DNA from: Clostridia bacterium
GTDB taxonomy: Bacteria > Bacillota > Clostridia > Oscillospirales > Acutalibacteraceae
Length of the DNA: 64,000 nt
NCBI GenBank assembly: GCA_017623575.1
Contig: JAGAOS010000005.1
Span: 14,350 to 78,349 of the forward strand
Reading direction: 5' to 3'
Shown here: piece after piece, positions 42,601 to 57,075 of the stretch
Layout of the letters: every line of letters starts with the position of its first letter
Position numbering within the stretch: position 1 is the first letter of the stretch
Made by a program: the position numbers and the translations under genes
Notes under the pieces: generated by a model
Told to the model about the DNA's origin: nothing
What the model saw: the letters and a program-made list of their open reading frames with translations, nothing else
Databases searched by the model: none

Positions 42601-43440
42601 TTATTCGTTCACCTCGGTGGTGGTAGTAGGTTCGTCTGTAGTTTCCGAATTTTCGATTACAGACTGGGTTTCTGTGTTTTCCTGGGTGGTTGACGGATTT
42701 GCTGACACAGAATCAGTATCTTCTACATCCAGCTTAGTACCGCCTTGATTATCATCGGGTGCACTGGATTCATTGGAATCAGGCAAGTCTGACTGTGACT
42801 GCAAAACAGCATCGCAATCGGCTTCGGAAATGCCGTTAATAATCATAACTACCTTGTTTTTTCCAACATCCTCATTAGTAATATACAATCTATCATTTTC
42901 GCCGTTTTGTGCATAATCGGCGTAATATGAAGATGTTCCCCAATGAGAAGTAAAGGTAACAGTGGTGTCAGCAGTAGGCTTAAGCTGGAAGATTACCTTA
43001 TCGGTAAATCTACCTGAAACCGTTTCATCAGCGCCAATTTGCTGAGTATGGAAGGTATCTGCACAACCGAGGGCGGTAACTATACAAAAACCTGTTTTTG
43101 CCGTACTATCAACACTTTCGTTCAAAGTAACAGTATAAATTTTGCCTGCCATTAATTTTGCAGTGTATGAGGCATTGGGCAGTTTTTCAACTTCAATCGG
43201 GGTGGTGCTTCCATTTTCGGTTATGCTGATTACAGCATCTGCCTCAAAATTCGCCGCTTTAATAGTATTGAAGCCGGAGGTGATATCGTGAGAAAAATAG
43301 GCATATGCAGTAAAGCTCATACCAATCAAGCACAAAACAACAGTAACTACAGTTGCCACAACTCGCATAAGCATTGTTTTTTCACTGATTTTTTCATCCT
43401 TGGGTATGTAAAAATTCTCTTTATAAAAGCTTCTCACCAA
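42601..43440 (-). CDS. Secreted protein with a SipW-type signal peptide and an acidic S/T-rich tail
   Basis: 279 aa. After the TM segment comes SFTAYAYFSHDITS. The C-terminal 80 aa are rich in D, E, S and T. Confidence 0.55.
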   Translation of the reverse strand: MVRSFYKENFYIPKDEKISEKTMLMRVVATVVTVVLCLIGMSFTAYAYFSHDITSGFNTIKAANFEADAVISITENGSTTPIEVEKLPNASYTAKLMAGKIYTVTLNESVDSTAKTGFCIVTALGCADTFHTQQIGADETVSGRFTDKVIFQLKPTADTTVTFTSHWGTSSYYADYAQNGENDRLYITNEDVGKNKVVMIINGISEADCDAVLQSQSDLPDSNESSAPDDNQGGTKLDVEDTDSVSANPSTTQENTETQSVIENSETTDEPTTTTEVNE

Positions 43441-43471
43441 ATCAACCTCCTTTCTTAATTTTTACTGATAA

Positions 43472-44125
43472 TTAGGGCTTTTTTATTTGATCTGCCTTGA
43501 CGGTAATGCCAAGATCCACCTCAGGAATAGTATCCCCACGGTAGTTGGCAACATTATCAACCTCTTTAGGCATACGGACAATGAGTGCAATGTATTTTGT
43601 TTCACCGGGATTTAATACCGCAGTTTCGGTATCATAGTTATGTAAAGGCATATCTGCAAGCTTCACAGCTGCATTTCGGTCAATAACACTATTCTTCATT
43701 TCGTTTTCGCTATTGGCGGTTGTAATGCCGAATTTTAAATAATCCTGCAGCATAAAGCGCTGACCGAATACATTAGTTGCCTGAATGCAACCGTTCACAT
43801 TAACTGCTGTATAAAATTCAAAAGGCAGGGTGCCTTTGTTTTCTACTTTTAAATACACAACCTGCACATAGCCGGGTTCATATAACGCTTCTTCATCAAA
43901 AATCTTGGTCTGACTGTCAACCTCTTCCCATTTTCCATCAGTAAGACGGTGAGATACCACCAAATCAAACTCAGCAAAATGAAAAATATTATTAATTTCG
44001 GGCGAGGTATCGGTAAACCAGGCAAGAGAGGTGCCTGTACCAAAAATTCCCCAGATAATAAGTGCGCACAAAGTAAGGACTAAAGCGATTCTTTTATAGG
44101 GTTTTTTCTTTGCGATTTTTTTCAA
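43472..44125 (-). CDS. TasA/camelysin-like fibre subunit with a SipW-type signal peptide
   Basis: 217 aa, TTG start with an AGGAGG RBS. Contains GTSLAWFTDTSPE and later YEPGYVQVVYLKVENKGTLPFEFY, the TasA-like WEPG...V.N.G.L block. Confidence 0.7.
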   Translation of the reverse strand: MKKIAKKKPYKRIALVLTLCALIIWGIFGTGTSLAWFTDTSPEINNIFHFAEFDLVVSHRLTDGKWEEVDSQTKIFDEEALYEPGYVQVVYLKVENKGTLPFEFYTAVNVNGCIQATNVFGQRFMLQDYLKFGITTANSENEMKNSVIDRNAAVKLADMPLHNYDTETAVLNPGETKYIALIVRMPKEVDNVANYRGDTIPEVDLGITVKADQIKKP

Positions 44126-44138
44126 GCTTTATTCCTCC

Positions 44139-44822
44139 TTATTTGTTTTTTGGGATTTTTTCTACATTCTCCTTATTCTTTTTTCGCCATACCAAAAGAA
44201 TAATAATCGTTGCAAGTGAAATTACCATAACAGCAATCCAAAGACCAATATTACTGTTATCACCCGTTGCGGGAGGCTTGGGATCGCCTTCTTCAACAGG
44301 AAATTCTTCAATCATAAATTGCCAATCAAGATAACCGATTTCACTTTGAAATTCATTATCCATCTCAACGGGAACATTTAATGTTACATCCAGATTGACC
44401 TCACCGCCCGAATAAAGGGTGCCAAGGCATACCCAATTGGTGAGCCCTGCTGTTTCATTCGCTGCGGCATCGAACATATATGCCATTTTATTATCACTGC
44501 TCTTTTCAACCTTCAAACCGAGCTGTGAAAGAAACTCCACAGAATTCTCGTGAGCGCCGAGAGAGCGCATATAGATTTTTACCTTTACCTTATTATCCGC
44601 ATTGTTTTTTACAGTGATTTTTTGTGTTAAGGTATCACCGGGCATAACGCCCTTGAAATTTGGGAAAAGGTCGGTCAAAGAATACTCGCTTCCGGGCTCA
44701 AATACAAACTCACCTGCGTTGCCGCTATAGGTTACTCTGCCATCTGCCGCATATGCAGAAAACGCAAAAAGAAAGGTAATAATAAAAGTGACAAAAACTA
44801 TAACAAAATTTTTTCTTAGCAC
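44139..44822 (-). CDS. TasA-like-domain surface protein with a classical signal peptide and a sortase (S/P)PxTG sorting signal
   Basis: 227 aa with an SAYA-ADG cleavage-like site. NFKGVMPGDTLTQKITVKNN is a TasA-like block. The C-terminus reads PPATGD, then a TM segment (IGLWIAVMVISLATIIILLVW), then RKKNK. Confidence 0.65.
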   Translation of the reverse strand: MLRKNFVIVFVTFIITFLFAFSAYAADGRVTYSGNAGEFVFEPGSEYSLTDLFPNFKGVMPGDTLTQKITVKNNADNKVKVKIYMRSLGAHENSVEFLSQLGLKVEKSSDNKMAYMFDAAANETAGLTNWVCLGTLYSGGEVNLDVTLNVPVEMDNEFQSEIGYLDWQFMIEEFPVEEGDPKPPATGDNSNIGLWIAVMVISLATIIILLVWRKKNKENVEKIPKNK

Positions 44823-44834
44823 CTGAAATCACCT

Positions 44835-45407
44835 CTATGCTTCTTCAGCGGGCCAACCGGATGCGGTATAGGTATTACCATCGCTGATGGGGTTGTTTTC
44901 ACTTTGTACCGCCTGAGCCTTAACGGTAAGATTAAGGGTTTTACCAAGATAACTGTTATCCACCTTGGAGCCGACGATTTCCACATGGGAGAACACCGCA
45001 GGAGTGGTTTCACCTGGATTTACAATGCCTGTATAGTAAAACCATCCGTCGGTATGAAGCACCCAATGTCGCTCATCAATATTAAGCTTGAAGCAATCCT
45101 CAGAGGAAAGCTCCTTTGAGTCGATACCGTAAACCATCTTAACACGGAGATAGAAAGGATGCTCACAATCACTTTCGATACTGACCTTCTTGGAAACAAT
45201 ATCTCCGGGAACGATATACACGCCCTCCCTTGGAAACTCGGTTCCCTGATCGGTCATTTCGTGAATTATAAAACGAATATTTCCGGTGGTAACAACATTT
45301 GTGGCTGTTCCAATAGTGGAATAATATGCAAGTGTGGACTGACTCATAAAGGTAACAAGAGCAGCAATAATAGCAACGATTAATATTTTAAATTTTGTCT
45401 TGCCCAA
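44835..45407 (-). CDS. BsaA/TasA-family SipW-dependent matrix protein
   Basis: I take the start as the TTG at 45407 behind an AAGGAGG RBS; the track ORF starts at 45446. Contains QSTLAYYSTIG, PGDIVSKKVSIES and the C-terminal TVKAQAVQSENN typical of BsaA-type proteins. Confidence 0.65.
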   Translation of the reverse strand: MGKTKFKILIVAIIAALVTFMSQSTLAYYSTIGTATNVVTTGNIRFIIHEMTDQGTEFPREGVYIVPGDIVSKKVSIESDCEHPFYLRVKMVYGIDSKELSSEDCFKLNIDERHWVLHTDGWFYYTGIVNPGETTPAVFSHVEIVGSKVDNSYLGKTLNLTVKAQAVQSENNPISDGNTYTASGWPAEEA

Positions 45408-45442
45408 TATAATGTCCTCCTTTTGCAAGATTTTGCCTATCA

Positions 45443-45633
45443 GCAATCAAAAGACAAAAACTACTGCGTAGTTTTGAAGTAATAAGTAATAGTGAATAGG
45501 TAATAAGTTCGGTGTGCCTTCGGCACGAATTTATTTTGTCGGCTCTGCCGACGCCTTACTTCTTACCTCTTACCTTAAAATGCAAAGCATTTTTGCCCTT
45601 TGATTGCCGCCTATCCCCCTTACGAGGGATAGG
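45443..45633 (-). repeat. Hairpin-rich composite intergenic repeat, copy A (full length)
   Basis: The outer arms gcaatcaaaagacaaaaa / tttttgccctttgattgc enclose the hairpins ctac-tgc-gtag, gtgcc-ttc-ggcac, gtcgg-ctctg-ccgac and aaaatgc-aaa-gcatttt, plus a purine-rich arm facing a pyrimidine-rich arm. A trailing hairpin cctatccc...gggatagg follows. Confidence 0.8.
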
Positions 45634-45668
45634 AAGGGCTTTATGTGAATAAAACTATATTTCGTTAA

Positions 45669-47780
45669 TTAAAGTGTAGCAAGATATGCATTCCACTCTG
45701 CTACAGTATAGTTGGTACCATTGTAAACAATTGCGCCAACTGTTGCGCCATCTTCGATAACGAGCTTTTGAAGATTTGCTTTTGTGGCATACGCTGAGGA
45801 AGTACCGTAATCGACAACAAGCTTATCGATTGCAGTGCCTGCTTTGATAGTCACTTTGCCCCTGATGGGAGCAGCATAGATCGTATCAATTTCTGCGCCG
45901 TCGATAGTAACATTGGCATGACTCCAGCAGTAGATAGTGCCGTATTCACCGCCGTTAACGGTGGTAGTGGTGCCATTAGAAAAACCTGCATCCACTGGCA
46001 TAGCACCGTCGATCATAGCGGTAGTGCCTGTCATAACACAATTATTCAAGATTGCGTTGCCGTAATGTGAAAAACCGCAAGCAAGAGTAAAGCCCTTGTC
46101 TCCGTTTGCGAGAGTCGAAACAAGATCCTTTACAACGAGGTTATTGGCAACATAGTCGCCGCCGCCCAAACCGTAATGACCAAGCTCAACGAAACCGGCA
46201 CCTGTAACGGTCAAATCACTTACAGTTACGTCCTCGCCTGCTGAAGGAACAAATGCAACATAACCGTGATTACCAACGGAGGGATCTGCACCCTCGGTAG
46301 TAATGGTATTACCCATGCCGTTAAAATTGATCGCATCGGTCGTCTCTATAATCAATTGATTGTCCGGATCGGTGTTAACATATTCAATATCGGTAGCCAT
46401 GAATACATCTTTGCCGCTGGTAGCAGTGTTAAGAGCTTCTGCAGTAGCAACCACCTGTCCGCCTGCAACAACTTTATTATTGTTCAAAGTGGGAACATAG
46501 TTATCGGTTTCGTAGATATAATTACCCTGATCGCCTGCCTGGCAGTCGATGAAGTGACTGTTCTTGATTACAATGTTAAAGCTGCTTTCTTCTCTATCGT
46601 CGATAGCAATACCTGGTTTCTCAGAAAGAGGTCCGAATACACAATCGTCTACCACAACATTTGAAACCTCGCCTGCATACTGGTCACAAACCTTCAAGCC
46701 GCGAGTACCGCTGAAGTAGCAACCGGTAAAGGTAGCCTTGCCGTTATAAACCCATGCGCCATACATCGTGGTATTGCCATAAGTAGAAGAATCGTTATTG
46801 TGGCCGGAGAAGGTACAGTCTACAAAGGTAGACAGAGGACCGTCGGTCATAATACCGTCGTCAAATGCAACATTAACAAAGGTGTTATTGCCACCAAGTT
46901 CAAGATAGGTGAACTCCCAAGCATTCTCACCGTCTTCATAGGTGTAGAAAGTAGAGTCTACAACCTTCATGTTCTTCAGGTTGATGTTATCAAGACCGCC
47001 GCCGTGACCGGTAACGGTGATGGTAGCATCATCGGACGCACCAACCAGAGTGACACCGTTCATGTCTCTGTTTTTGCCTGCACGTTCTGCAGCCAATTCA
47101 ATGGCAGTGCCTTTGATGCCAATGATCTTTGCACCGCTTGCAAGAGCATCTTCTAACTCTTTGGTTGTGGTAGCAAGAACATCATAATATGTGGCATCCT
47201 TATCATACTGGTTGTTAAAGCTATCATTTTCGTGTGTTAGCTGAGTAGCATAAACAGCAACTGAAATGCCCTCAACCTTGAGATTCTGATATTCATTACC
47301 GGCATTTTCCTTCATATGACCGGTAAGAATAATTTCGCCAGATTTTTCATTAGGAAGCAATTTACCTTCGTAGGTGTACATATCAGTCTCAACACCATCC
47401 ACGGTAATAGTCCAATCAATTGCTTCGAGAAGTTTTGCATCACCAATAATGCCATTGATAACAAAGTTGTATTTCAAAGCTAATGTGCCTTTATTTACAA
47501 CATAGATAGGCTCCATTTTATAAGTGCATCCGGGTTCCCAAAGAATCTGATCTTGAGCACGATTATCAGCAGTAACGAACTCAATAACCTCACCCTCTAA
47601 TGAGTTACCGTCAGCATCAACCAAATCAACCCTTAAAGTACCGGACTTAATAATGTTACCCGAAGAGGTAACGGAGTCTGTGAACCAAGCAAAGGTGCTT
47701 CCAACGAGCATAGAAACACATACAATTAGTGACAAAGCACTCATAAGGAGAGCACGCTTGGTGGTTTTAGCTTTAGTCAT
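45669..47780 (-). CDS. Large fibre/adhesin protein: SipW-type signal, TasA-like N-domain and right-handed beta-helix passenger
   Basis: 703 aa. Contains GSTFAWFTDSVTS, ILWEPGCTYKMEPIYVVNKGTLALKYNF, then repeated beta-helix-like turns (VDCTFSG, FTGCYFSG, VDDCVFG, IKNSHFIDC). Confidence 0.7.
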   Translation of the reverse strand: MTKAKTTKRALLMSALSLIVCVSMLVGSTFAWFTDSVTSSGNIIKSGTLRVDLVDADGNSLEGEVIEFVTADNRAQDQILWEPGCTYKMEPIYVVNKGTLALKYNFVINGIIGDAKLLEAIDWTITVDGVETDMYTYEGKLLPNEKSGEIILTGHMKENAGNEYQNLKVEGISVAVYATQLTHENDSFNNQYDKDATYYDVLATTTKELEDALASGAKIIGIKGTAIELAAERAGKNRDMNGVTLVGASDDATITVTGHGGGLDNINLKNMKVVDSTFYTYEDGENAWEFTYLELGGNNTFVNVAFDDGIMTDGPLSTFVDCTFSGHNNDSSTYGNTTMYGAWVYNGKATFTGCYFSGTRGLKVCDQYAGEVSNVVVDDCVFGPLSEKPGIAIDDREESSFNIVIKNSHFIDCQAGDQGNYIYETDNYVPTLNNNKVVAGGQVVATAEALNTATSGKDVFMATDIEYVNTDPDNQLIIETTDAINFNGMGNTITTEGADPSVGNHGYVAFVPSAGEDVTVSDLTVTGAGFVELGHYGLGGGDYVANNLVVKDLVSTLANGDKGFTLACGFSHYGNAILNNCVMTGTTAMIDGAMPVDAGFSNGTTTTVNGGEYGTIYCWSHANVTIDGAEIDTIYAAPIRGKVTIKAGTAIDKLVVDYGTSSAYATKANLQKLVIEDGATVGAIVYNGTNYTVAEWNAYLATL

Positions 47781-47936
47781 TTTATTTTCTCCTTTTTATG
47801 CTGTCGGTGTAGATTTAAAGTTTTTTACCCACACACCGACATATGGGAATAACTATGCTTTTAACTTGTGTAAGGGAGCTTTTATAAAGCAATTAAACTA
47901 AAGTTCCTTTTTTGATGCTAGGCATCATTTGGGGGA

Positions 47937-48620
47937 TTATTTGCCCCAATAGTTAGTGAATGCGGCGCGTGCCTCTGTGCCGGTGTTATCAGCCTGAAGA
48001 GCCTCTGCCTTAACCTTAATGCTAAAGTCGCCACTAACATACTTCATATCTTCCTGCTCAAACTCACCGGGGATGGTTACATTGTTAAAAAGAACAGCTG
48101 TCTGATCCTCAACAAGTTTGGTGCGGAGATAGTACACATAGGTTACCTTGTTGTCAACATAGGTGGTAGCTGCATCATCAGCATACCAAGCATTAGCATC
48201 AACATCTAACCAAGTGCGAAGGTCGCTGGTGATACCCTGTGCGTCACAAGCAGCCTTAATGGTTGACCACTCATCAAAGGAAACATATACACGGATCCAC
48301 TGATCATAATCACCTGTATTCTCAACTGTAGGATTCTTGGGAAGCTTATCGCCGGGGGCGATTTCGGGATATGTATTACCGGCATGAGTAATTTCGGTAT
48401 CACCGTCATTATCAGCATCGGCATTGTTATCACCGTCATTCTCATTTTCCCATACCTCAACGCTGAAGTCGGGAGTACCGTCTCCGTCGCTATCGGCAAT
48501 TAAGAATTTATTGGTAATTTCATCAGCAGCATTGAACCATGCCAAAGTACCCATAGAAAGAATAGCAATAAGGCAAACTGCAAGAGCTGCAACAAACACC
48601 TTTTTCTTAGTTAATCTCAT
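47937..48620 (-). CDS. BsaA/TasA-family SipW-dependent matrix protein with an Asp-rich Ca-binding-like insert
   Basis: 227 aa. Contains MGTLAWFNAADEI, DSDGDGTPD...NDGDNNADADNDGDTE, PGDKLPKNPTVENTG and the C-terminal KVKAEALQADN. Confidence 0.65.
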   Translation of the reverse strand: MRLTKKKVFVAALAVCLIAILSMGTLAWFNAADEITNKFLIADSDGDGTPDFSVEVWENENDGDNNADADNDGDTEITHAGNTYPEIAPGDKLPKNPTVENTGDYDQWIRVYVSFDEWSTIKAACDAQGITSDLRTWLDVDANAWYADDAATTYVDNKVTYVYYLRTKLVEDQTAVLFNNVTIPGEFEQEDMKYVSGDFSIKVKAEALQADNTGTEARAAFTNYWGK

Positions 48621-48701
48621 TGTATTTTTCCTCCTTTCTTAAAGATTTTATTTCAAACTCGTGCCTGTCGGAATTCCTTTACAGGCGCGAATCGGAAACC
48701 G

Positions 48702-49325
48702 TTAGTTTTCGCTCTTTTTGCTTTCCATTTCGGCACGGAGCTGAGCAAGCTCGGCCTTCAGTTTTTCGTTTTCCTCCGCAGCAGTGTCAATTTCGGTCTG
48801 CACGGCGGAAGCTTCTTCGCCTTCATCATCTTTTTTCTTCTTACCAATCATATCGGGCAGAAAAACGGCGATGATCAAAATAACACCTATAGCAATGGTT
48901 ATGTACATACCGGGGGGATGCTGCACAAAGTCTGAAACATAGCCAAGCTTTGGAATAGAAAACTTAGGCACACCTATTACATTGTTATAATGAACGGGGG
49001 CTTGATCCTCCACCTGATTGGCATCACCCTTGGTATAAAAACGCTGATTTTCGGCATCCACACGAACAACGCGGTGGGTACCAATAGCCAAATCCTCATT
49101 AATAATAAAGGTTATTACATCCCCCGCCTTAATGGTGGCAGGGTCAACCTGTTTTACATAAATAAGATCCCCTACACTGTAATTAGGCTCCATACTGGGG
49201 GAAATAACGGTATAGCACTGATAGCCTATAAGCCGTGAGCCCATTAAAAATACGGCGCAAAAAACAATTACAATAACTAGTATGGTAGATACAATGTTCC
49301 ATACTTTTTTAAGGGTGTTATTCAT
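48702..49325 (-). CDS. sipW: Signal peptidase I, SipW (archaeal/ER) type, with a C-terminal TM segment and charged coiled-coil-like tail
   Basis: 207 aa. Contains ISPSMEP (catalytic Ser), GDLIYVK, THRVV (His) and TKGDANQVED, then a TM segment and the tail KKKKDDEGEE...NEKLKAELAQLRAEMESKK. Confidence 0.85.
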   Translation of the reverse strand: MNNTLKKVWNIVSTILVIVIVFCAVFLMGSRLIGYQCYTVISPSMEPNYSVGDLIYVKQVDPATIKAGDVITFIINEDLAIGTHRVVRVDAENQRFYTKGDANQVEDQAPVHYNNVIGVPKFSIPKLGYVSDFVQHPPGMYITIAIGVILIIAVFLPDMIGKKKKDDEGEEASAVQTEIDTAAEENEKLKAELAQLRAEMESKKSEN

Positions 49326-49340
49326 AAATGCATCTCCTTG

Positions 49341-49508
49341 TTACCTTCGGTAATAAGAACCTGACCTGTTACCGCAATCACAGATTGCGAACAGGTGCCC
49401 AGAACCTTGTTGCCTTTCGGCAATCAAAAGACAAAAATTACCTCTTACCTTAAAATGCAAAGCATTTTTGCCCTTTGATTGCCGCCTATCCCCCTTGCGA
49501 GGGATAGG
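49341..49508 (-). repeat. Hairpin-rich composite intergenic repeat, copy B (central part deleted, extra 5' module)
   Basis: Shares ttgcctttcggcaatcaaaagacaaaaa ... ttacctcttaccttaaaatgcaaagcatttttgccctttgattgccgcctatccccc with copy A. It also shares the module taataagaacctgacctgttaccgcaatcacagattgcgaacaggtgcccagaaccttgttgcc with copy C. Confidence 0.8.
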
Positions 49509-49554
49509 ACGGACTTTATTATCCGTTCATGCGGATAGTATTTATATTTTAAAA

Positions 49555-51570
49555 TTAGTAAACATCCACACCGTCAATAACAATGTTCAGATACTCTTTA
49601 GTCATAGAATTCTTGTTACCAACGATATTCTTGTAACCAACACACTTATCATTCTCAGCAAAGCCGTTAACGGTAGTATCGTTGATATAGATGTTGTACT
49701 TAGCACCAACACCGTCTACACCGGTTTCGAAAGCAGACTTAGTAAAGCCGGTGCCATTGGTGCGATCATTAAAGGTACAACCATCTACATAAACATCACA
49801 GGTCTGATTGTAAACAAGAATGGACTTACCATCGGTGTTAAAGGTGCAATTGTTGAACTTAACGTTTTTGCCACCCCAAGTCCAAATGTTGTAATAATCA
49901 CCTGTAACATTGAATGTACAGTTGTTGAACACACTTTCGCCATAGAGAGTGTATGAACCATTGAATGTACAGTTGTTATAAGTGGCTCTGCAACGCGCAT
50001 ATCCCGCATAAGTATGACCATCGGTGTTGATAGTAACACCCTCAAAGGTTACGGTTGAGCCATCAAGGCTATAGTCGCAACCCTCATAGGAGCCGTCGTT
50101 TTGGTTAGCTACAACAGTATTGCCGTTACCAACGATGGTAAGAGTCTTACCCTGAGCAGAATCAGGAATGATGTAGTTACCGGAGCCCAAAACCACAGTA
50201 GATGCACCATTAGCAATAGCAGTATCAAACTGAGTATTGTTCTTTACCTGAACAGCCTCGGTTGCATCGCTGCCATCGGCTGCATCACCAAGGATTTTAA
50301 CTTGATAGTCCTGAGCAGAAGACTGTGCAGCATAAACTCTTGCAGCTACGGTAGCGTTTTTAACATAAATAACCAAAGGATTGGAATATCCTGTATCCTG
50401 ATGAGTTGCAAACTGACCGCCGCCTTCAAACTTAACATCATCACCCAAAAGATAGATGCTGGTGAGGTTCGGGCAAGAACGGAATACATAGTTAGCAAGT
50501 GTAGGATTGCCTTTGATGGTAACGGTGGTCAGGTTTGCCATATCTCTGAACGCACCCTCATCAATCATCTTAACGCTTGCAGGAATGGTAAGTTTAGACA
50601 TACCTGTTAGTCTAAAGGCCTGCTCACCAATGTATTCAAGAGTTGACGGGAAATTGATCGATTTAAGAGTTGACATATTGATTGCTCTTGCATTGATTTC
50701 CTTAACACCCTCAGGAAGAGTGATACTCTCAACAGAAGAATACTTGCTGAATACCGGTCCGTTGGTATCATTCTTATCTTTAGCAATACCAATCATAGTT
50801 ACATCGTCCGGCACGGTAAAGGTTGTGCCTACATTTCCATAAGGAACACTTCTGAGCACTACATTACCATCGTTAAGGTAGTAATAGGTGTTGCCGTCGA
50901 TAACCTTGATGTGCTTATCAGGAACATCGATATCATCGTAGTTCTCGTCAAAGCTGTCTTTCTCAACATTGTCCTGAGTAGCCATCAAAACAACCTTGAA
51001 ATCAGAACCGATAGAAAGTCCCTGATACTCGTTGCCGGCAGTTTCCTGCATTTTAAGGGCAATGGTTACGGTGTCAGCGGTATTTGCTTTAAGGTCGCCG
51101 GCCATATTAGCAGGCATACCGTCCAAAATATCGCTTAAAGTACCAACTTTGGTGAGTTCAGTCATTTCTCTGCTTGCCAAAGTATATTCACCCTCAGCGA
51201 AATACACGTCGATAACATCAGCGAGTTCACTAACTTCGCCATTCGCTGCAATGTTAAGGTTGTATTTGAGAGCCAAAGTGCCGACATTGCTGATTTTAAT
51301 GTTCTTTGCCTCAACATAGCCGGGCTCCCAAAGATCGTAATTAAAGATTGCACCGGCAGAAGCATCTTTGTAAACCTGCTGTGCACCGGTTGGGGTTGCA
51401 TCCTTCCACTCCATTGTTACGTCAAGAGTACCGGACTTAATAATGTTACCTGCGGAAGTAACGCTGTCTGTGAACCAAGCGAATGTGCTACCAACCAACA
51501 TAGATATGCACACAAGCAAGGACAAGGCGCTGAACAGCAAAGCGCGCTTGGTTGATTTTTGCTTTGTCAT
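49555..51570 (-). CDS. Large fibre/adhesin protein: SipW-type signal, TasA-like N-domain, BspA-type LRR and beta-helix passenger
   Basis: 671 aa. The N-terminal 45 aa are nearly identical to the 703-aa protein. The LRR-like region reads ITLPEGVKEINARAI...INFPSTLEYIGEQAF...LTIPASVKMIDEGAF. NCTFN repeats occur near the C-terminus. Confidence 0.7.
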   Translation of the reverse strand: MTKQKSTKRALLFSALSLLVCISMLVGSTFAWFTDSVTSAGNIIKSGTLDVTMEWKDATPTGAQQVYKDASAGAIFNYDLWEPGYVEAKNIKISNVGTLALKYNLNIAANGEVSELADVIDVYFAEGEYTLASREMTELTKVGTLSDILDGMPANMAGDLKANTADTVTIALKMQETAGNEYQGLSIGSDFKVVLMATQDNVEKDSFDENYDDIDVPDKHIKVIDGNTYYYLNDGNVVLRSVPYGNVGTTFTVPDDVTMIGIAKDKNDTNGPVFSKYSSVESITLPEGVKEINARAINMSTLKSINFPSTLEYIGEQAFRLTGMSKLTIPASVKMIDEGAFRDMANLTTVTIKGNPTLANYVFRSCPNLTSIYLLGDDVKFEGGGQFATHQDTGYSNPLVIYVKNATVAARVYAAQSSAQDYQVKILGDAADGSDATEAVQVKNNTQFDTAIANGASTVVLGSGNYIIPDSAQGKTLTIVGNGNTVVANQNDGSYEGCDYSLDGSTVTFEGVTINTDGHTYAGYARCRATYNNCTFNGSYTLYGESVFNNCTFNVTGDYYNIWTWGGKNVKFNNCTFNTDGKSILVYNQTCDVYVDGCTFNDRTNGTGFTKSAFETGVDGVGAKYNIYINDTTVNGFAENDKCVGYKNIVGNKNSMTKEYLNIVIDGVDVY

Positions 51571-51672
51571 ATAAATGACCTCCTTATTTTATTTTGCCAA
51601 CGCTCAAAAGTGGATAACCGCACCGCGCTGACCGTTGACTTAACGCACGGAACGATTGGTAGATTTTTAATA

Positions 51673-51954
51673 TTGCCTTTCGGTAATAAGAACCTGACCT
51701 GTTACCGCAATCACAGATTGCGAACAGGTGCCCAGAACCTTGTTGCCTTCGGCAATCAAAAGACAAAAAACTACTGCGTAGTTTTGAAGTAATATGTAAT
51801 AGTGAATAGGTAATAAGTTCGGTGTGCATTAGGCACGAATTTATTTTGTCGGCTCTGCCGACACCTTACTTTTTCACTATTACCTCTTACTTATTACCTC
51901 AAAACCGCAACGCGGTTTTTGCCCTTTGATTGCCGCCCATCTGAAAGGGATGGG
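51673..51954 (-). repeat. Hairpin-rich composite intergenic repeat, copy C (full length plus 5' module), within the 5' leader of the 671-aa gene
   Basis: Same architecture as copies A and B, but two hairpins have different sequences that still pair: aaaaccgc-aa-gcggtttt replaces aaaatgc-aaa-gcatttt, and cccatc-tgaaag-gatggg replaces cctatccc...gggatagg. Confidence 0.8.
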
Positions 51955-52036
51955 ACGGCGTGAGGTGAAAATGTTCGAAGCCGTGATATATTTTATTACC
52001 ACGCTCAACATAGGGATAAGCTATATAGTAATAGAA

Positions 52037-52267
52037 TTAATACTTTACAAATGGGATTAGTGATAACCACAATCTCCTTCTTTTATGTATCCAGTACCGC
52101 CGTTCCGAACCATCGGTGCGCTCGATTTCCATATTGATATATTCCAGTTCCTGTAAAAATTCTTTAATGAACAAGCATAAACCAACAAGCAATCCAATAA
52201 AAATCGGAACAGCAATAATTCCTATAAGTATCCAAAATGTGGTATCCAAATTATTTGCTTCGGGCAT
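52037..52267 (-). CDS. Small single-TM membrane protein
   Basis: I take the start as the ATG at 52267 (MPEANNLDTTFWILIGIIAVPIFIGLLVGL...) behind an AGGAGA RBS; the track ORF extends further upstream. Confidence 0.45.
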   Translation of the reverse strand: MPEANNLDTTFWILIGIIAVPIFIGLLVGLCLFIKEFLQELEYINMEIERTDGSERRYWIHKRRRLWLSLIPFVKY

Positions 52268-52400
52268 CGCTATCTCCTGTTTCTTCGCTGGCGGGGGTGG
52301 GGGTAGTGCGGTTTTGTTTGGAATTGTTGATACTAAAAACGGCACAAATCATAAAACCGATAATACCGCCCACAACAAATCCAATAAAAAAATTCAACAT
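52251..52400 (-). CDS. Possible 49-aa hydrophobic peptide (DUF3789-like, recalled from memory)
   Basis: MLNFFIGFVVGGIIGFMICAVFSINNSKQNRTTPTPASEETGDSDARSK. It falls below the ORF-track size cut-off and overlaps the next start by about 17 nt. The RBS is weak. Confidence 0.3.
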   Translation of the reverse strand: MLNFFIGFVVGGIIGFMICAVFSINNSKQNRTTPTPASEETGDSDARSK

Positions 52401-52438
52401 TGGGTTTCAACTACTTTCTATAAGTAAGGGGACTATAA

Positions 52439-53188
52439 TTACTCTGTTTCTGCACCCGTAGTAGTATCGGATACAGTATCATCAGATGCAATGGTGGCAG
52501 TTTCTGCAACTGCTTCATCAGGCTGTTTGCCCTCCAACTGAGCTTTAAGTGCTTTAAGCTCCTCAAGCATCTTGGCGTTTTCTGCCTTTTCTGCTTCAAT
52601 TTTATCCTTTTCAGCCTGCATTTCTTCCATCTGCTCTTTTTTATAGCGGCGGAACAGGTTGAAGAATTTAACACCTTCATACAAAATAATCAGCATAAAT
52701 GGGGTGAAAATACAAACGAAATATCCGGGGGTGGTCTTTAAAAAGTTAAAGAAGGTTCCAAGGCCGGGAATGGCGCTTGAATATTTACCCAAAACATAAG
52801 GGTAGGTTACAATGGTTTCATCATCCACACCGGTGGTGGTACCATAGGTAACAAATCCGGGATTACCCTCAGCATCGGTGGTGAGAGTGCGGATTTTATG
52901 GGTTATGGTTTCGCCGAAGCTGTTGGTATCCTGTGACATAAAGGTGATGATGTCGCCCGCTTTAAGGGTGGAGGGATCAACCTCTTTTACAAGAATCAAG
53001 GAGCCTGCATCAAAATCGGTAGCTGCCATTGAATCTGTATTTACTATGTACATCTTAATACCAAACAGATCTCTGTCATTGCGGTTAAAGGTGGTAACCG
53101 AGATAACGGTAAATATCATCATAGATACCGCAAGTAGAACAATCAGCCATATGATTGTTATTTTAATAATGTTAAATGCTTTTTTCAC
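52439..53188 (-). CDS. sipW: Second, divergent SipW-type signal peptidase I with a long coiled-coil-like tail
   Basis: 249 aa, GTG start. Contains NTDSMAA (Ser), GSLILVKEVDPSTLKAGDIITF (matches B. subtilis SipW closely) and ITHKI (His). YGTTTGVDDE replaces the KGDAN block. A TM segment follows, then KKEQMEEMQAEKDKIEAEKAENAKMLEELKALKAQLEG. Confidence 0.75.
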   Translation of the reverse strand: MKKAFNIIKITIIWLIVLLAVSMMIFTVISVTTFNRNDRDLFGIKMYIVNTDSMAATDFDAGSLILVKEVDPSTLKAGDIITFMSQDTNSFGETITHKIRTLTTDAEGNPGFVTYGTTTGVDDETIVTYPYVLGKYSSAIPGLGTFFNFLKTTPGYFVCIFTPFMLIILYEGVKFFNLFRRYKKEQMEEMQAEKDKIEAEKAENAKMLEELKALKAQLEGKQPDEAVAETATIASDDTVSDTTTGAETE

Positions 53189-53208
53189 AATATACCCTCT
53201 CTTTGCTT

Positions 53209-53823
53209 TTATTTTTCAAAAACGGTCTCCGCTGCCTCTTTATTGCTCCAGGAAAGCTGCGTACCAATTGCCGAATAAATGACCGAAAAAACCTCTTCTG
53301 CTGTTTCTTCGTCATCCGGAATTTCGGCACGCAAAATTTTAATAATGGTGGAGTAAACAATATCGAGTATGCGATTTAACACACGCCAAACATCCGTACT
53401 TTTTTTGAAAGCGGGGGTGAAACTTTCTATAACCCTGCAATACGCCCTTCTTCTGTCTATAGGAGAATAGGAATTGTAATAGTGAGAATAATAGTACTTG
53501 ATAAAGAAAGAGCATTTTTCTCTGTCGGAAACAATATTCTTCCAACAGCTTCTGAAGAATATATGACATCTTTCATCAATATCAATTCCTTTTATATTCA
53601 TAATCGGTACATACTTTAGAATACAAGCAATAAGCTCATTATCAATTTCGGTAAAGGTAGCAGCAAATAAATCATCCTTATCCTTAAATACCCTATAAAT
53701 ATATGCCTCGTTAATGCCTGAATGGGTTGCTATTGCTTTTGTGGTGGCTTTGTGAATGCCGTCGGCGGCAACTATGTGGATGGTGCTGTCAATAAATTTT
53801 TGACGCATATACGACTGTTCCAT
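53209..53823 (-). CDS. TetR/AcrR family transcriptional regulator
   Basis: I take the start as the ATG at 53823 behind a GGAGGA RBS. The N-terminal HTH reads FIDSTIHIVAADGIHKATTKAIATHSGINEAYIYRVFKDKDDLF. Confidence 0.8.
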   Translation of the reverse strand: MEQSYMRQKFIDSTIHIVAADGIHKATTKAIATHSGINEAYIYRVFKDKDDLFAATFTEIDNELIACILKYVPIMNIKGIDIDERCHIFFRSCWKNIVSDREKCSFFIKYYYSHYYNSYSPIDRRRAYCRVIESFTPAFKKSTDVWRVLNRILDIVYSTIIKILRAEIPDDEETAEEVFSVIYSAIGTQLSWSNKEAAETVFEK

Positions 53824-53873
53824 TTTCTTTCCTCCGGTTCGTAAGTGTTTACTACAAATTTTAGAAAAATAAT

Positions 53874-53892
53874 ACAAACGCTGAACGTTTGT
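53874..53892. promoter_or_regulatory. Palindromic operator candidate upstream of the TetR gene
   Basis: acaaacg-ctgaa-cgtttgt has 7-bp inverted arms and lies about 50 nt upstream of the TetR start. Confidence 0.4.
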
Positions 53893-53970
53893 GCTTTAAT
53901 TTTGCATAATCTTTGCGGAGGAGTGAGTATCTGTAAAATTCAGTTAAGAATACGGCCTGATTAGTAATTC

Positions 53971-54201
53971 TTAAGGTTTAATAATAGGTTCGACATTTAT
54001 AATGCTTTCTTTGGCACACCGCTTACATTTAATCGGTAGATTTTTAATCTCAGTGTCGGGAAGTAACCAGAGCACTGTATGCTTTCCGCATATGGGACAA
54101 AAAAATCTTCGTCGCTCTGTTTTAGTATCGTTTTCTGTTATTTTATTCTGTAATGCTTTTTCCAAATTAGGATCACCTCGGTTTTGGCTCAATTGCATCA
54201 A
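53971..54201 (-). CDS. Cysteine-rich KTR-domain-like small protein
   Basis: FFCPICGKHTVLWLLPDTEIKNLPIKCKRCAKESIINV matches the CPxCG...NFPLxCxxC pattern of KTR proteins found on Firmicutes mobile elements. The real start may be the TTG at 54165 behind GAGGTGA. Confidence 0.6.
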   Translation of the reverse strand: MMQLSQNRGDPNLEKALQNKITENDTKTERRRFFCPICGKHTVLWLLPDTEIKNLPIKCKRCAKESIINVEPIIKP

Positions 54202-54204
54202 ATA

Positions 54205-54262
54205 ACCTTAAAAAAGAAAAGCCTGTACCATAATCGTATAAAACGATTAAATGGCACAGGCT
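54205..54262 (-). terminator. Strong intrinsic terminator (minus strand) between the recombination sites and the KTR gene
   Basis: On the minus strand a long stem agcctgtgccat...atggtacaggct (one mismatch, with an inner aatcgt/acgatt helix) is followed by ttttcttttttaagg. Confidence 0.7.
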
Positions 54263-54360
54263 CTAAGGCTCAGGCACGGGATAATTTTTTATGTATTACG
54301 CGAGGTACGACTCACTCTGTTAAGATTATGTATATGTTCAATGAATAACGATAGTATTCA

Positions 54361-54382
54361 ACATAATGGGTATTATGTTGTA
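54361..54382 (+). repeat. Core-type recombination site 1 (dif-like)
   Basis: acataatgggtattatgttgta. The 7-bp inverted arms acataat/attatgt surround gggt. Same orientation as site 2. Confidence 0.65.
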
Positions 54383-54419
54383 TTTGTTTATAAAAAAACG
54401 ATGCTAATTGAACATCGGC

Positions 54420-54444
54420 ATCACATAATGGGTATTATGTTGTA
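54420..54444 (+). repeat. Core-type recombination site 2 (dif-like)
   Basis: atcacataatgggtattatgttgta is a perfect 25-bp inverted repeat of site 3. Confidence 0.7.
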
Positions 54445-54680
54445 CGAACAGCCGAAACTAGCATACTTCGTTACTTCATCAGTAGCAATGATTATAGCAT
54501 AGTTTGTTGAAAAAAGCAAGTAATTTTTAATAAAAAATAAGATTTACATAAAAACAACAGATTTTGGGCGTAGTGAAGGAGACCTTTTGTTTAATTTTTT
54601 CAAAAGGTCATCTTTGTTATACTTTATTTACATATATTAAAGCATCTAATAATGGTAAATCTCCTTTATTTATTAAGTTT

Positions 54681-54705
54681 TACAACATAATACCCATTAT
54701 GTGAT
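54681..54705 (-). repeat. Core-type recombination site 3 (dif-like), inverted relative to sites 1 and 2
   Basis: tacaacataatacccattatgtgat is the reverse complement of site 2. It lies 24 nt from the recombinase stop codon. Confidence 0.7.
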
Positions 54706-54728
54706 AACCGCTAATTTGTTAGCGGTTT

Positions 54729-55571
54729 TTATATTATCAATCGCATATTCTCCATACGGCGCTGATGCTCTGCACCGGTGGTAATTATATAAATACGAGT
54801 TGTATTTATATTGGAATGACCAAGAATATCCGCCAGCTTTGCAATATCCTTTTCAATGCCGTAAAAAGTGCGAGCAAAAAGATGTCTGAGATTGTGCGGA
54901 AAAACCTTTTGCGGCGAAACACCGGCTTCTTCACACAGTTCCTTCATTTGCCGCCATATATTACTACGGTCAAGCGGCTTTCCGTTTTTGGTTACAAACA
55001 ATATTCCGGTAGTAATACCCTGTTCTGCGGCATACCGAAGCAGCTTCTTTTTCAAAGCCTTGACAATGAATATTTTTCTTGTTTTACCCTTACAAGAAAC
55101 CTCTGCCTCCCCTCGCCTGACAGCCTCCACAGTTATATATTGCAACTCACTAACACGAATGCCTGTTCCACAGATTGTCTGTACCACAAGGGACAGCCGT
55201 TCGTTTTTCTTTTGCTCAGCCGCTCTGACAAGGGCTGTGTATTCCGCCCTGGTAAGCTCCTTTTCCTCAGAACAGTAGGCTTCGTTTTGAAGCTTGAACT
55301 GCTTTACACATAAATCATTCCAGCCGGCAAATCTAAAAAAGGCATTCAATGCCGCCAGCATTGAGTTGGTGCTTCTTATGGCGTACTTTTCGGCTAAGGC
55401 GCCCTTGTACTCCAACACCATTGCTTTATTTGGTATATTCCCATCTGCATAATCTGCAAAAAAATGAATATCTCGCATATATTTTTGAATGGTTGCTTCT
55501 GTCTTTTCATTTTCGGTAAGATATTTTTTAAAGTCATTTATAATTTTTAAGGTAATAATAGTTTTTTTCAT
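54729..55571 (-). CDS. Tyrosine site-specific recombinase (XerC/XerD-like integrase family)
   Basis: 280 aa. N-terminal SAM-like core-binding domain. Catalytic residues are R in GTGIRVSEL, HxxR in HNLRHLFARTF, and H...Y in LGHSNINTTRIY. Confidence 0.9.
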   Translation of the reverse strand: MKKTIITLKIINDFKKYLTENEKTEATIQKYMRDIHFFADYADGNIPNKAMVLEYKGALAEKYAIRSTNSMLAALNAFFRFAGWNDLCVKQFKLQNEAYCSEEKELTRAEYTALVRAAEQKKNERLSLVVQTICGTGIRVSELQYITVEAVRRGEAEVSCKGKTRKIFIVKALKKKLLRYAAEQGITTGILFVTKNGKPLDRSNIWRQMKELCEEAGVSPQKVFPHNLRHLFARTFYGIEKDIAKLADILGHSNINTTRIYIITTGAEHQRRMENMRLII

Positions 55572-55638
55572 ATTTACTCTCCTTAAATTTTAATACTATT
55601 ATTTTACACTCTATCTGCCAAAATACACAATCTTAAGA

Positions 55639-55667
55639 TTGACTTTAAATTAAAACTATGATAATAT
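55639..55667 (+). promoter_or_regulatory. Candidate sigma-A promoter of the MFS gene
   Basis: TTGACT, a 17-nt spacer, then TAATAT. Confidence 0.5.
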
Positions 55668-55736
55668 TATTGCGTAAGTGAAACCCATTACGGTTTCACC
55701 TCATCTGCCTATATTATAAATAAGAGATGATGCAAT

Positions 55737-56927
55737 ATGAAAAAAATCAGTAACGGTGCTGTAGTTTATCTTTTTGCAGTAACATATCTTGTAAGCTATG
55801 TTACGCGAATAAACTACGGTGCCGTTTTAGTTGAAATGGTAAATGCTACGGGTTTTAGCAAAACCGCGCTTTCGGTTGCTCTTACAGGCAGCTTTATAAC
55901 CTACGGAATAGGTCAAATAATAAGCGGCTTTTTTGGTGATAAGGCTCAGCCCAAGCGACTTGTTTTTTGGGGCCTTTTAACATCTGTTACCATAAATGTT
56001 TTGATTCCGTTTTGCAGTAGTCCAACCGTTATGGCAGCTTTGTGGAGCGTCAACGGTTTGGCTCAAGCCTTTATGTGGCCACCTATGGTAAGGCTTATGG
56101 TAAGCCTTTTTAATGATGATGAATACCGAAAAGCAAGTGTTAAGGTTTCCTATGGTAGCTCACTTGGTACCATTGTTGTATTTTTGTTATCTCCCCTTTT
56201 AATATCTATTTGGGGTTGGAAAAGCGTTTTCTTTGTTTCTGCCGCCTTTGGTGTTGTAATGCTTGTAATTTGGCAATTGCTTTGCCCTGAAATAAACTTT
56301 TCACCCGAAATTCCGCAAAAAAACACTTCTGCACCAATTGGCAATTTTAAAATAGATATTCTTTTTGTGCTTATAATGATTGGTATAGTTCTTCAGGGTG
56401 CCCTGCGTGACGGCGTTACCACCTGGACTCCCACCTATATTGACGATATGTTTAATTTAGGCAGTGCCTTAGCAATTCTAACCAGCGTTGTACTGCCAAT
56501 TTTCAGTATGTTCTGCCACGGTATGGGCGGTTGGCTTTATTATAAGGTTTTTAAAAGCCCTGTGCTTTCTGCAGGTGTAATTTTTGGTGCAGGCACCCTT
56601 GCCGCTACGGCTTTATACCTTATTGGTGCAAAAAGCGCGGTTATTTCAATAATTTGTCTTGCTCTGCTTGTGGGAGCAATGCACGGCGTAAACCTTATGC
56701 TTATTTGTATGGTTCCCGCCTTTTATAAAAACACAGGCAAAATCTCTTTAGTTTCAGGACTTCTTAACGCCTGTACATATGTAGGTAGTGCTATTTCCAC
56801 CTATGGAATCGCACTTCTTACCGATAATGCAGGCTGGTCGGTAACGGTAGGTGTCTGGGCGATTATTGCCCTTGTTGGCACCGCTGTATGCCTTGTTGCC
56901 ATACCATTATGGAATAAAAAATTCTAA
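55737..56927 (+). CDS. MFS transporter
   Basis: 396 aa with about 12 TM segments, and GDKAQPKR between TM2 and TM3 (MFS motif A-like). Confidence 0.8.
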   Translation: MKKISNGAVVYLFAVTYLVSYVTRINYGAVLVEMVNATGFSKTALSVALTGSFITYGIGQIISGFFGDKAQPKRLVFWGLLTSVTINVLIPFCSSPTVMAALWSVNGLAQAFMWPPMVRLMVSLFNDDEYRKASVKVSYGSSLGTIVVFLLSPLLISIWGWKSVFFVSAAFGVVMLVIWQLLCPEINFSPEIPQKNTSAPIGNFKIDILFVLIMIGIVLQGALRDGVTTWTPTYIDDMFNLGSALAILTSVVLPIFSMFCHGMGGWLYYKVFKSPVLSAGVIFGAGTLAATALYLIGAKSAVISIICLALLVGAMHGVNLMLICMVPAFYKNTGKISLVSGLLNACTYVGSAISTYGIALLTDNAGWSVTVGVWAIIALVGTAVCLVAIPLWNKKF

Positions 56928-56954
56928 ATGTAGTGGTGAAGCATTTTAAAAATA

Positions 56955-56983
56955 TTGATTTTCTAATTGTAGCGGTGTATAAT
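56955..56983 (+). promoter_or_regulatory. Candidate sigma-A promoter of murD
   Basis: TTGATT, a 17-nt spacer, then TATAAT. Confidence 0.55.
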
Positions 56984-57075
56984 ATATAATGTATAGTTAT
57001 GTTATATGATGGGTGGCAAAATTACATATTCTGTAATAAAACAAGGTCGCCTGTATCAGTTTTGGAGGGTCTTTT

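Follow-up and report, generated by a model that had tools for sequence, protein, structure and literature searches.

Invertible promoters are well known, mostly from Bacteroides, Escherichia coli and Clostridioides difficile. Tyrosine recombinases, Xer-like or other, invert promoter segments ahead of surface-protein genes in Mycoplasma (Xer1/vpma) and Bacteroides (Mpi/Tsr), in multi-site arrangements. In the fimS switch of E. coli, operated by FimB/FimE, an invertible segment of about 300 bp with the promoter of a surface-fiber operon is bounded by short inverted repeats, and a tyrosine recombinase gene is adjacent, outside the switch. A locus that shares these features is described here from a window of 64,000 nt (the whole stretch of DNA that was analyzed) of a Clostridia bacterium (Oscillospirales; Acutalibacteraceae; assembly GCA_017623575.1, contig JAGAOS010000005.1, positions 14,350-78,349 of the forward strand). 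It comprises a tyrosine recombinase gene, three copies of a short site downstream of it and, between two of these, a segment with a putative promoter; it is very likely an invertible-promoter (inverton) phase-variation switch, run most likely by the adjacent Xer-like recombinase. Its closest functional analogue would be fimS: in both, the switch contains the promoter, a recombinase gene adjoins it and the operon is one for fibers.

Unlike in fimS, the recombinase is not of the FimB/E family and is a single one, the cores of its sites are dif-like, and the extra site or sites with a terminator cassette would give more than two states. The invertons of Mycoplasma and Bacteroides move one promoter among coding cassettes or use one master recombinase, whereas here non-coding terminator cassettes appear to be shuffled around one promoter. 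With the RecV switches of C. difficile (cwpV, flgB, cmrRST) the locus shares clostridial tyrosine-recombinase phase variation and a segment size within 150-300 bp; in cwpV, an orientation-dependent intrinsic terminator is part of the switch logic (PMC2784873). Invertons of about 255 bp, almost always adjoining a tyrosine-type recombinase, are listed for 17 Clostridia strains of the defined gut community hCom2 as inverton group 139 / invertase group 35, and the passages on this group report flipping in culture, detected by read mapping, in Clostridium sp. D5 and Intestinimonas butyriciproducens (PMC11892184). Group 139 agrees with the present switch in size, host class and adjacent recombinase, by description and not by repeat motif, and may be the same family; the same passages describe no multi-site or terminator-cassette architecture for it (PMC11892184).

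Thus, the kind of system is known, but no description appears to exist of this family, of its site grammar or, above all, of a multi-site architecture in which terminator cassettes are movable and vary in copy number. Literature searches with the repeat sequence gave chance matches only, and those on SipW/TasA turned up no paper tying it to DNA inversion. The analysis provides a sequence-level definition of a widespread, self-contained cassette of recombinase plus inverton in the poorly studied Oscillospirales of gut and rumen.

The three sites and the segment between them

Sites are named outward from the recombinase gene, a, b and c being sites 3, 2 and 1 of an earlier note made by a model on this DNA; X is the segment between a and b, and T the piece of about 40 bp between b and c. 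The features of the switch, in window coordinates, are the following.

54729..55571, minus strand: gene of an Xer-like tyrosine recombinase, 280 aa, presumed invertase (Pfam, NCBIfam and PDB matches)
54706..54727, plus strand: hairpin between the recombinase stop codon and site a (terminator scan; -11 kcal/mol; UUUUU tail on the plus strand, none on the minus strand)
54681..54705, minus strand: site a, core ACATAA-TGGGTA-TTATGT with inner flank TGTA
54445..54680, no strand: invertible segment X, 236 bp between 25-bp repeats, found in both orientations in near-identical relatives
54581..54609, plus strand: hairpin inside X (gaccttttg/caaaaggtc), conserved, with a U-rich tail on the plus strand only (-16.9 kcal/mol)
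54491..54519, minus strand: putative promoter P, with -35 TTGCTT at 54514-54519, a 17-nt spacer and an extended -10 TGC-TATAAT at 54491-54499
54420..54444, plus strand: site b, inverted relative to site a
54383..54419, minus strand: T cassette, with a terminator hairpin at 54399-54417 and U7 at 54392-54398, between P and the operon in the present state
54361..54382, plus strand: site c, direct copy of site b

The window sites are real and non-random. The 18-bp core ACATAATGGGTATTATGT is present exactly three times in the 64-kb window, at 54361 (+), 54423 (+) and 54685 (-), each time adjoined by the inner flank TGTA, and no further match was found there at up to 3 mismatches; none of 100 dinucleotide shuffles gave three matches, the shuffle mean being 0.15. 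A repeat search returned a perfect 25-nt inverted repeat (54420-54444 / 54681-54705, arms separated by 236 nt) and a perfect 22-nt direct repeat (54361-54382 / 54423-54444), whose copies are 62 bp apart from start to start. Hence the three core copies reported in the earlier note 3' of a 280-aa tyrosine recombinase gene hold on exact-match search, shuffling and Pfam comparison, as does the arrangement given there, with sites 2 and 3 as a perfect 25-bp inverted repeat around 236 bp and site 1 as a direct copy of site 2. Short inverted repeats around a segment of a few hundred bp, the hallmark of an inverton, are found in the window and in about 124 related loci.

Promoter P (TTGCTT-17 nt-TGCTATAAT) lies on the minus strand, like the recombinase gene and all genes downstream, and is aimed at b, c and the operon, with an expected start site near 54484. 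It was identified by reading the sequence and then backed by conservation, a scanner for consensus promoters having missed it because its -35 element is weak. The motif TGnTAnA[AC]T stands at a fixed position of X in 108 of 125 loci, directed toward the downstream genes (hereafter the cargo) in 42 and toward the recombinase in 66. Together with the internal hairpin, this extended -10 is among the best conserved blocks of X; by contrast, the element TTTACA...AATAAT, named as a weak promoter-like element in the earlier note, which overlooked the dominant P, falls in a poorly conserved part. In the loci compared, the orientation of X was called by the position of the promoter, and a heuristic based on the best perfect hairpin was dropped, as it disagreed in 34 distant loci. 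In one orientation of X, a conserved extended -10 at a fixed position faces the operon, separated from the first gene by two terminators in the window.

Located upstream of P, the hairpin gaccttttg/caaaaggtc at 54581-54609 is confirmed; with X flipped, it would meet read-through from the recombinase gene and terminate it. In a clade whose sites have the spacer CGAGAG, its stem differs in sequence (GCCTTTCG/CGAAAGGC), while its position is the same. The hairpin at 54706-54727 has equivalents in relatives and, as its U-run is on the plus strand only, would stop transcription that leaves X toward the recombinase gene. Judging from these features, P and the hairpins would function as promoter and terminators. 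The earlier proposal of an orientation-dependent terminator stands as far as the conserved hairpin with its one-sided U-rich tail is concerned, but not in the cwpV-type logic attached to it: the switch carries its own promoter, which makes the logic fimS-like rather than cwpV-like.

It could still be argued that the flipping of a terminator, as in cwpV, gates read-through from the recombinase gene or from another upstream promoter, and that TGCTATAAT is not the relevant promoter. Such a switch has a precedent in Clostridia, cwpV itself (PMC2784873), the conserved X hairpin has its U-rich tail on one strand only, and the hairpin 3' of the recombinase gene is devoid of a sense U-run, so that read-through into X is plausible. 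However, the extended -10 is among the most conserved features of X and is fixed in position; moreover, cwpV has its promoter outside the switch and relies on a distant recV that serves many switches, whereas P is part of X and every switch of the present family has a recombinase gene of its own next to it. This explanation is regarded as quite unlikely, although the hairpin logic is partly shared and the two mechanisms are not exclusive.

The T cassette, a small terminator between sites 1 and 2, is absent from the earlier account. In the window its hairpin (T1) folds at -7.7 kcal/mol (z -3.0) and is also called by the terminator scan. Relatives hold 42 such cassettes (24 distinct), in clades with the spacers TGGGTA and TGGTTA; all of them have the form GCCGrTGTT-loop-AACATCGG followed by T5-7, with conserved stem and T-run and variable loop and tail, and they fold at about -9.5 to -15 kcal/mol. 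The window copy is one G-C pair short and weaker. Only 31-33 bp separate the extra sites of the CGAGAG clade, and this interval is free of terminators. A shufflon of the Rci type, which shuffles coding segments, does not describe the locus, as the segments between its sites are non-coding (a promoter segment and 40-bp terminator cassettes).

In the proposed mechanism, a single protein would recombine near-palindromic arms (ACATAA / TTATGT-TGTA), with polarity provided by the asymmetric TGGGTA crossover. Segment X would either drive the downstream operon, of KTR, TetR, SipW and TasA-like genes, or point back to the recombinase gene and block read-through, while site c would delimit a 62-bp unit made of the terminator cassette and a site. 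Inversion between a and b would flip the promoter alone; inversion between a and c would, besides flipping the promoter, carry the terminator across X to its far side; direct sites would recombine to delete the cassette unit or, between sister chromosomes, to amplify it. From the geometry of inversion, T would always terminate transcription leaving X on the side of T, and four arrangements are predicted, in which the promoter would point toward the operon with the terminator in the way (state 1, that of the window), toward the recombinase with the terminator on the operon side (state 2), toward the recombinase with the terminator in front (state 3), or toward the operon unobstructed (state 4, full ON).

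Site grammar and rearranged forms among relatives

Relatives of the recombinase were collected from species-representative genomes (80 loci, 66-86% identity; Acutalibacteraceae, Oscillospiraceae and other Clostridia metagenome-assembled genomes (MAGs) from ruminant and human gut), from metagenomes (80 loci) and by exact-protein look-ups; they are denoted below by L numbers. Site statistics refer to the 164 related loci of the two collection scans, 124 of which have a scorable inverted pair. The same site type follows the recombinase stop codon in about 170 related loci of gut and rumen Oscillospirales: ACATAA-N6-TTATGT is found 30-45 bp past the stop codon in nearly all of them, with an inverted copy about 260 bp further. 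Arms and inner flank (TGTA) hardly vary over the 124 loci, while the central 6 bp occur in 30 variants that are matched between the partner sites of one locus, the partner cores being identical in 107 of the 124. A free spacer with partner identity within the locus is the signature of a tyrosine-recombinase crossover region, and the core anatomy proposed in the earlier note is thereby confirmed; the asymmetry of this region would set the polarity of the sites. The grammar of the family thus consists of fixed arms with a free but locus-matched crossover, and its conserved layout of an insulating terminator plus promoter. In L166, L168 and L174, one base of the site a spacer is changed (TAGGTA, GGGGTA).

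Direct evidence of REARRANGEMENT is provided by the near-identical pairs L006/L007, L041/L042 and L061/L075. Between L006 and L007, X matches at 242/244 positions as reverse complement only, with flanks matching at 862/881 and 526/529 (98-99%), and L007 is devoid of the T-plus-site unit present in L006. Segment X is likewise inverted between L061 and L075 (240/244 as reverse complement). In L041 and L042, X has the same orientation, whereas T, located between b and c in one of the two, is found between a and b in the other, as reverse complement (47/48), within flanks that match at 880/883 and 782/797.

Further arrangements were found among contigs with identical recombinases, which come from different samples and have the same neighbors (YpsA upstream, TetR downstream) and flanks 97-99.8% identical. 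The P0041 contigs comprise L177, which reads a X(P->) b T c (state 1), L174, a rcT b X(<-P) c (state 3), and L175 and L176, a rcT b X(P->) c (state 4), where rcT is T as reverse complement. Among the P0050 contigs, L169 and L170 read a X(<-P) b T (state 2), both ending inside T before a third site; L168 is in state 3, and L167 and L171 in state 4, the latter ending inside X. Taken together, the contigs of P0041 and P0050 hold all four arrangements predicted for three sites. L166 has four sites with T on both sides, and L165 five sites with two T copies on the left and one on the right. The T-plus-site unit was observed in up to three copies, on one or both sides of X, in L165 and L166, and also in L016 and L064; overall, the copy number of the 62-bp unit in relatives is 0-3.

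These forms support the earlier proposal of an inversion switch with an inner (2x3) or an outer (1x3) choice. The 1x2 deletion also proposed is borne out by the presence or absence of a 62-63-bp unit in near-identical loci, but its size has to be corrected: with the direct sites 62 bp apart from start to start, a deletion of 62 bp is predicted, not 59. In one clade, additional sites shuttle and amplify terminator cassettes, and one possibility, put forward with some reserve, is that the extra sites, far from being debris, form a recombinase-addressed array of promoter and terminators, which would give the fiber operon a heritable setting with several levels rather than two and would be portable among cargo in gut Oscillospirales. 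The parts are compact and natural components for recombinase logic and, if the array reading were true, would be a natural counterpart of the synthetic "transcriptor" logic.

In the lineage of the window itself, L182 (96% recombinase identity, with the same major facilitator superfamily (MFS) gene upstream) has the arrangement of the window up to site c and continues past it with GATAACCGCT, which reads as the ten bases adjoining site a in reverse complement. This junction arises only after inversion between a and c, so that molecules with that inversion existed. An analogous fold-back follows site b in L027. Both contigs fold back into the reverse complement of the 3' flank of the recombinase gene, a chimeric assembly path that implies that both orientations were present in the sample. 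Thus, both orientations within unchanged flanks are documented in relatives, and the window's own lineage adds the state-3 junction of L182.

The same fold-back contigs show that assemblers take chimeric paths here, and many contigs end in the switch, which raises the question whether the alternative arrangements are assembly artifacts at a short inverted repeat. Contig ends do cluster in the switch, with 47 within 450 bp downstream of the stop codon against 8 in the next 550 bp; 29 lie within 450 bp upstream, so that the enrichment is only moderate and lends weak support to the switch. The repeats of 22-25 bp are far shorter than the k-mer of 141 (k141 is part of many contig-record names), so that the junctions were spanned by real reads and are not products of repeat collapse. 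Moreover, the arrangements show no internal conflict and were recovered repeatedly, from independent samples and by independent pipelines, and the fold-back junctions themselves require inverted molecules. An artifact is thus very improbable, and the switch accounts for the recurrent assembly breaks at these loci.

One allele without a switch was observed in L183, a contig of 1358 bp from Logan SRR31393037, whose recombinase is 97% identical to that of the window. The core of its site a (spacer TGGGTA) is joined to the outer flank of site c, and X, b and T (about 324 bp) are missing. As a and c are inverted relative to each other, this allele cannot arise by normal deletion; it suggests either a rare recombination in wrong alignment, through the palindromic arms, or an ancestral empty site.

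Among more distant relatives, the cultured Monoglobus pectinilyticus (L184, 4311-4606) has the same site type after a recombinase of 53% identity, with the spacer TTTTGA: ACATAATTTTGATTATGTTGTA forms there a perfect 22-nt inverted repeat with copies 252 nt apart. This cultured carrier makes the system testable. In another cultured relative, Pusillibacter faecalis pMM59_01 (L185, 4339-4658), a recombinase of 49.5% identity is followed by three copies of a different repeat, GACAAAAACAACATTT; two are direct, the third lies inverted at a distance of 268 nt, and the gene of a large S-layer-homology protein comes downstream.

The recombinase and its relation to Xer

The recombinase matches the Pfam families Phage_integrase (1.2e-25) and Phage_int_SAM_1, its N-terminal SAM-like domain, and its catalytic set is complete (R139, K163, H226, R229, H252 and Y261). 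The best NCBIfam match is XerA_Arch, at 137.7 bits under a cut-off of 220, and the scores for XerD (111 vs 330), XerC (110 vs 335) and XerS (51 vs 267) are also under their cut-offs. Membership of the FimB/FimE-type invertases was considered and rejected at about 30 bits against about 221, the two NCBIfam subfamilies of "tyrosine-type DNA invertase" giving 32.5 and 29.9 bits with cut-offs of 221 and 222, respectively. The best PDB match is 4a8e, deposited as "probable tyrosine recombinase XerC-like" (1e-23). By these matches the enzyme appears Xer-like, yet it falls in no Xer equivalog and in neither FimB/E invertase subfamily. Its gene is always directly 5' of the switch in the roughly 170 related loci, and the adjacent recombinase is most likely the one that operates the switch.

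The closest relatives in sequence and structure are the single-recombinase Xer systems, namely archaeal XerA/dif, Helicobacter XerH/difH and streptococcal XerS/difSL, with which the locus shares one recombinase, near-palindromic arms and a 6-bp center. In contrast to these systems, it would invert a regulatory segment and not resolve dimers, it is under all equivalog cut-offs, it has several sites per locus and a variable spacer, and the module is present on two contigs in two MAGs.

This kinship raises the question whether the sites are instead the chromosomal dif of Xer dimer resolution, or attachment sites of an integrative element such as an integrative mobile element exploiting Xer (IMEX), as the earlier note had suggested as an alternative. 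The core does resemble dif, with palindromic ATAA/TTAT arms around a 6-bp center, and Xer proteins are the best family and structure matches of the recombinase; its scores, however, are far under the Xer cut-offs (138 vs 220; 111 vs 330). Dimer resolution goes with membership of an Xer equivalog and a single site at the terminus, while the window has three sites, two of them inverted, and the MAGs JBGVRU and JAZSNT each hold the module on two different contigs, the cargo being always variable. The spacer varies between loci and the segment is found inverted. An IMEX would show direct dif-like repeats around cargo that is devoid of its own recombinase, while here the direct repeats enclose only the 40-bp terminator and the module includes the recombinase gene. 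Finally, where a terminus would give a maximum of the cumulative GC skew, the locus has a local minimum, at divergent genes. With sub-cut-off scores, recurrence ahead of unrelated cargo and the skew minimum, the dif/IMEX alternative is rejected, next to no probability being left for it. The skew minimum was observed at about 54000-58000 of the window, where genes switch from minus (fiber operon, recombinase) to plus (MFS, murD, peptidases), and is either origin-like or simply follows the gene strand.

Downstream genes and coupling to the switch

The features between the switch and the end of the fiber operon are the following.

54205..54275, minus strand: strong terminator T2 in the KTR leader (hairpin 54205-54262; -32.7 kcal/mol, z -8.2)
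53971..54201, minus strand: gene of a Cys-rich KTR small zinc-ribbon protein, the first after the switch (Pfam Cys_rich_KTR, 3e-09)
53874..53892, minus strand: palindrome ACAAACG-N5-CGTTTGT, which precedes the TetR gene and also scores as a weak terminator
53209..53877, minus strand: gene of a TetR-family regulator (Pfam TetR_N, synteny)
42601..53188, minus strand: SipW/TasA-type fiber operon (profile matches; synteny in relatives)

The fiber cluster (10 kb) contains two SipW-type signal peptidases, an LPXTG protein, several proteins without family match and at least four proteins with SipW-dependent signal peptides, two of them BsaA-like and two large and camelysin-like; one of the camelysin-like proteins has 671 aa and BspA leucine-rich repeats (LRRs). 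Synteny in the clade is co-directional, in the order switch, KTR (in only a subset of relatives), TetR, SipW, small membrane protein and TasA/camelysin-like protein, while the genes upstream are not conserved. In this arrangement the invertible promoter would probably provide heritable on/off switching of a cell-surface fiber operon, the expression of which would follow the state of the switch.

The caveat in the earlier note about a strong terminator at 54205-54262 stands: T2 is kept in all KTR-bearing loci, preceding KTR in every one of them (L012, L016, L018, L019, L024-L026, L028 and L030-L033, and further L036, L040-L042, L087 and L089). Its 5' flank is conserved (GCCTGAGCCTTAGA...), with an almost invariant GCCTGAGCCTwAGAGCCTGTGCC even where the rest of the leader has diverged. 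T2 may be a conditional attenuator or part of an insertion unit of KTR plus terminator. A search of 52000-57500 gave no relevant Rfam match at E<=1, so that the leader holds no riboswitch, and RNAalifold of the leader from site c to KTR returned the terminator hairpin only, with no alternative antiterminator.

Several observations weigh against an invertible promoter that is run by the adjacent recombinase and drives the operon. In the window, P is followed by T1 (weak, -7.7) and T2 (very strong, -32.7) before the first gene; as T2 stands before KTR, the effective output of the switch is uncertain there, and so is the coupling of switch and operon in the KTR-bearing subclade. State 4 is absent in the first roughly 24 three-site, terminator-bearing loci and was seen only in the identical-protein look-ups. 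The window and the four contigs listed with an identical recombinase show state 1 only, each over the part of the switch that it covers: L001 and L002 contain the complete switch, L004 breaks off within site b, and L003 stops 81 bp past the stop codon. The case for the adjacent recombinase as the catalyst consists of its strict co-occurrence with the switch.

The first of these points leads to the proposal that in KTR-bearing loci the switch yields no more than a short non-coding RNA, some 70-280 nt long and terminated at T1 or T2, the fiber operon being on separate, TetR-controlled promoters and the switch either uncoupled or endowed with an RNA product. T2 is indeed very strong and highly conserved between switch and KTR, a consensus promoter (TTGACA-17-TATAAT) lies between site c and T2 in L039, L041 and L042, and the palindrome upstream of TetR suggests a regulated promoter of its own. 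Yet TetR-SipW comes right after the switch where KTR is absent, and so does the cargo open reading frame in distant loci; the leader has no conserved structure beyond the terminator and no Rfam match. A switch confined to a short RNA is thus considered unlikely, and the invertible promoter is preferred as the driver of the downstream genes.

The palindrome, in the form (A/G)CAAACG-N5-CGTTTG(T/C), is found with a second similar half-site upstream of TetR in the window and in L005-L009, L166-L168 and L174-L177, including loci without KTR. It is probably a TetR operator, and a candidate for autoregulation that would add a further layer of regulation.

The inverton of distant loci is found 20-170 bp ahead of collagen-repeat/LRR, DUF6273/dockerin and camelysin-like/beta-helix proteins, and also of Type III Mod methylases, a GGDEF protein and zinc-ribbon/SPFH proteins. 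This varied cargo indicates that the recombinase plus inverton is a portable cassette, set ahead of typical phase-variable genes. Phase-variable SipW/TasA-type fibers and, elsewhere, surface adhesins and Type III methylases are thus predicted in abundant commensals.

In L094, L103 and L143, from human gut metagenomes, the cassette was observed directly ahead of Type III restriction-modification Mod or MmeI-like methyltransferase genes, and such methyltransferase loci are candidate inversion-controlled phasevarions in gut Clostridia. The promoter is in forward orientation in L094 and L120 and in reverse orientation in L103, L104, L106 and others.

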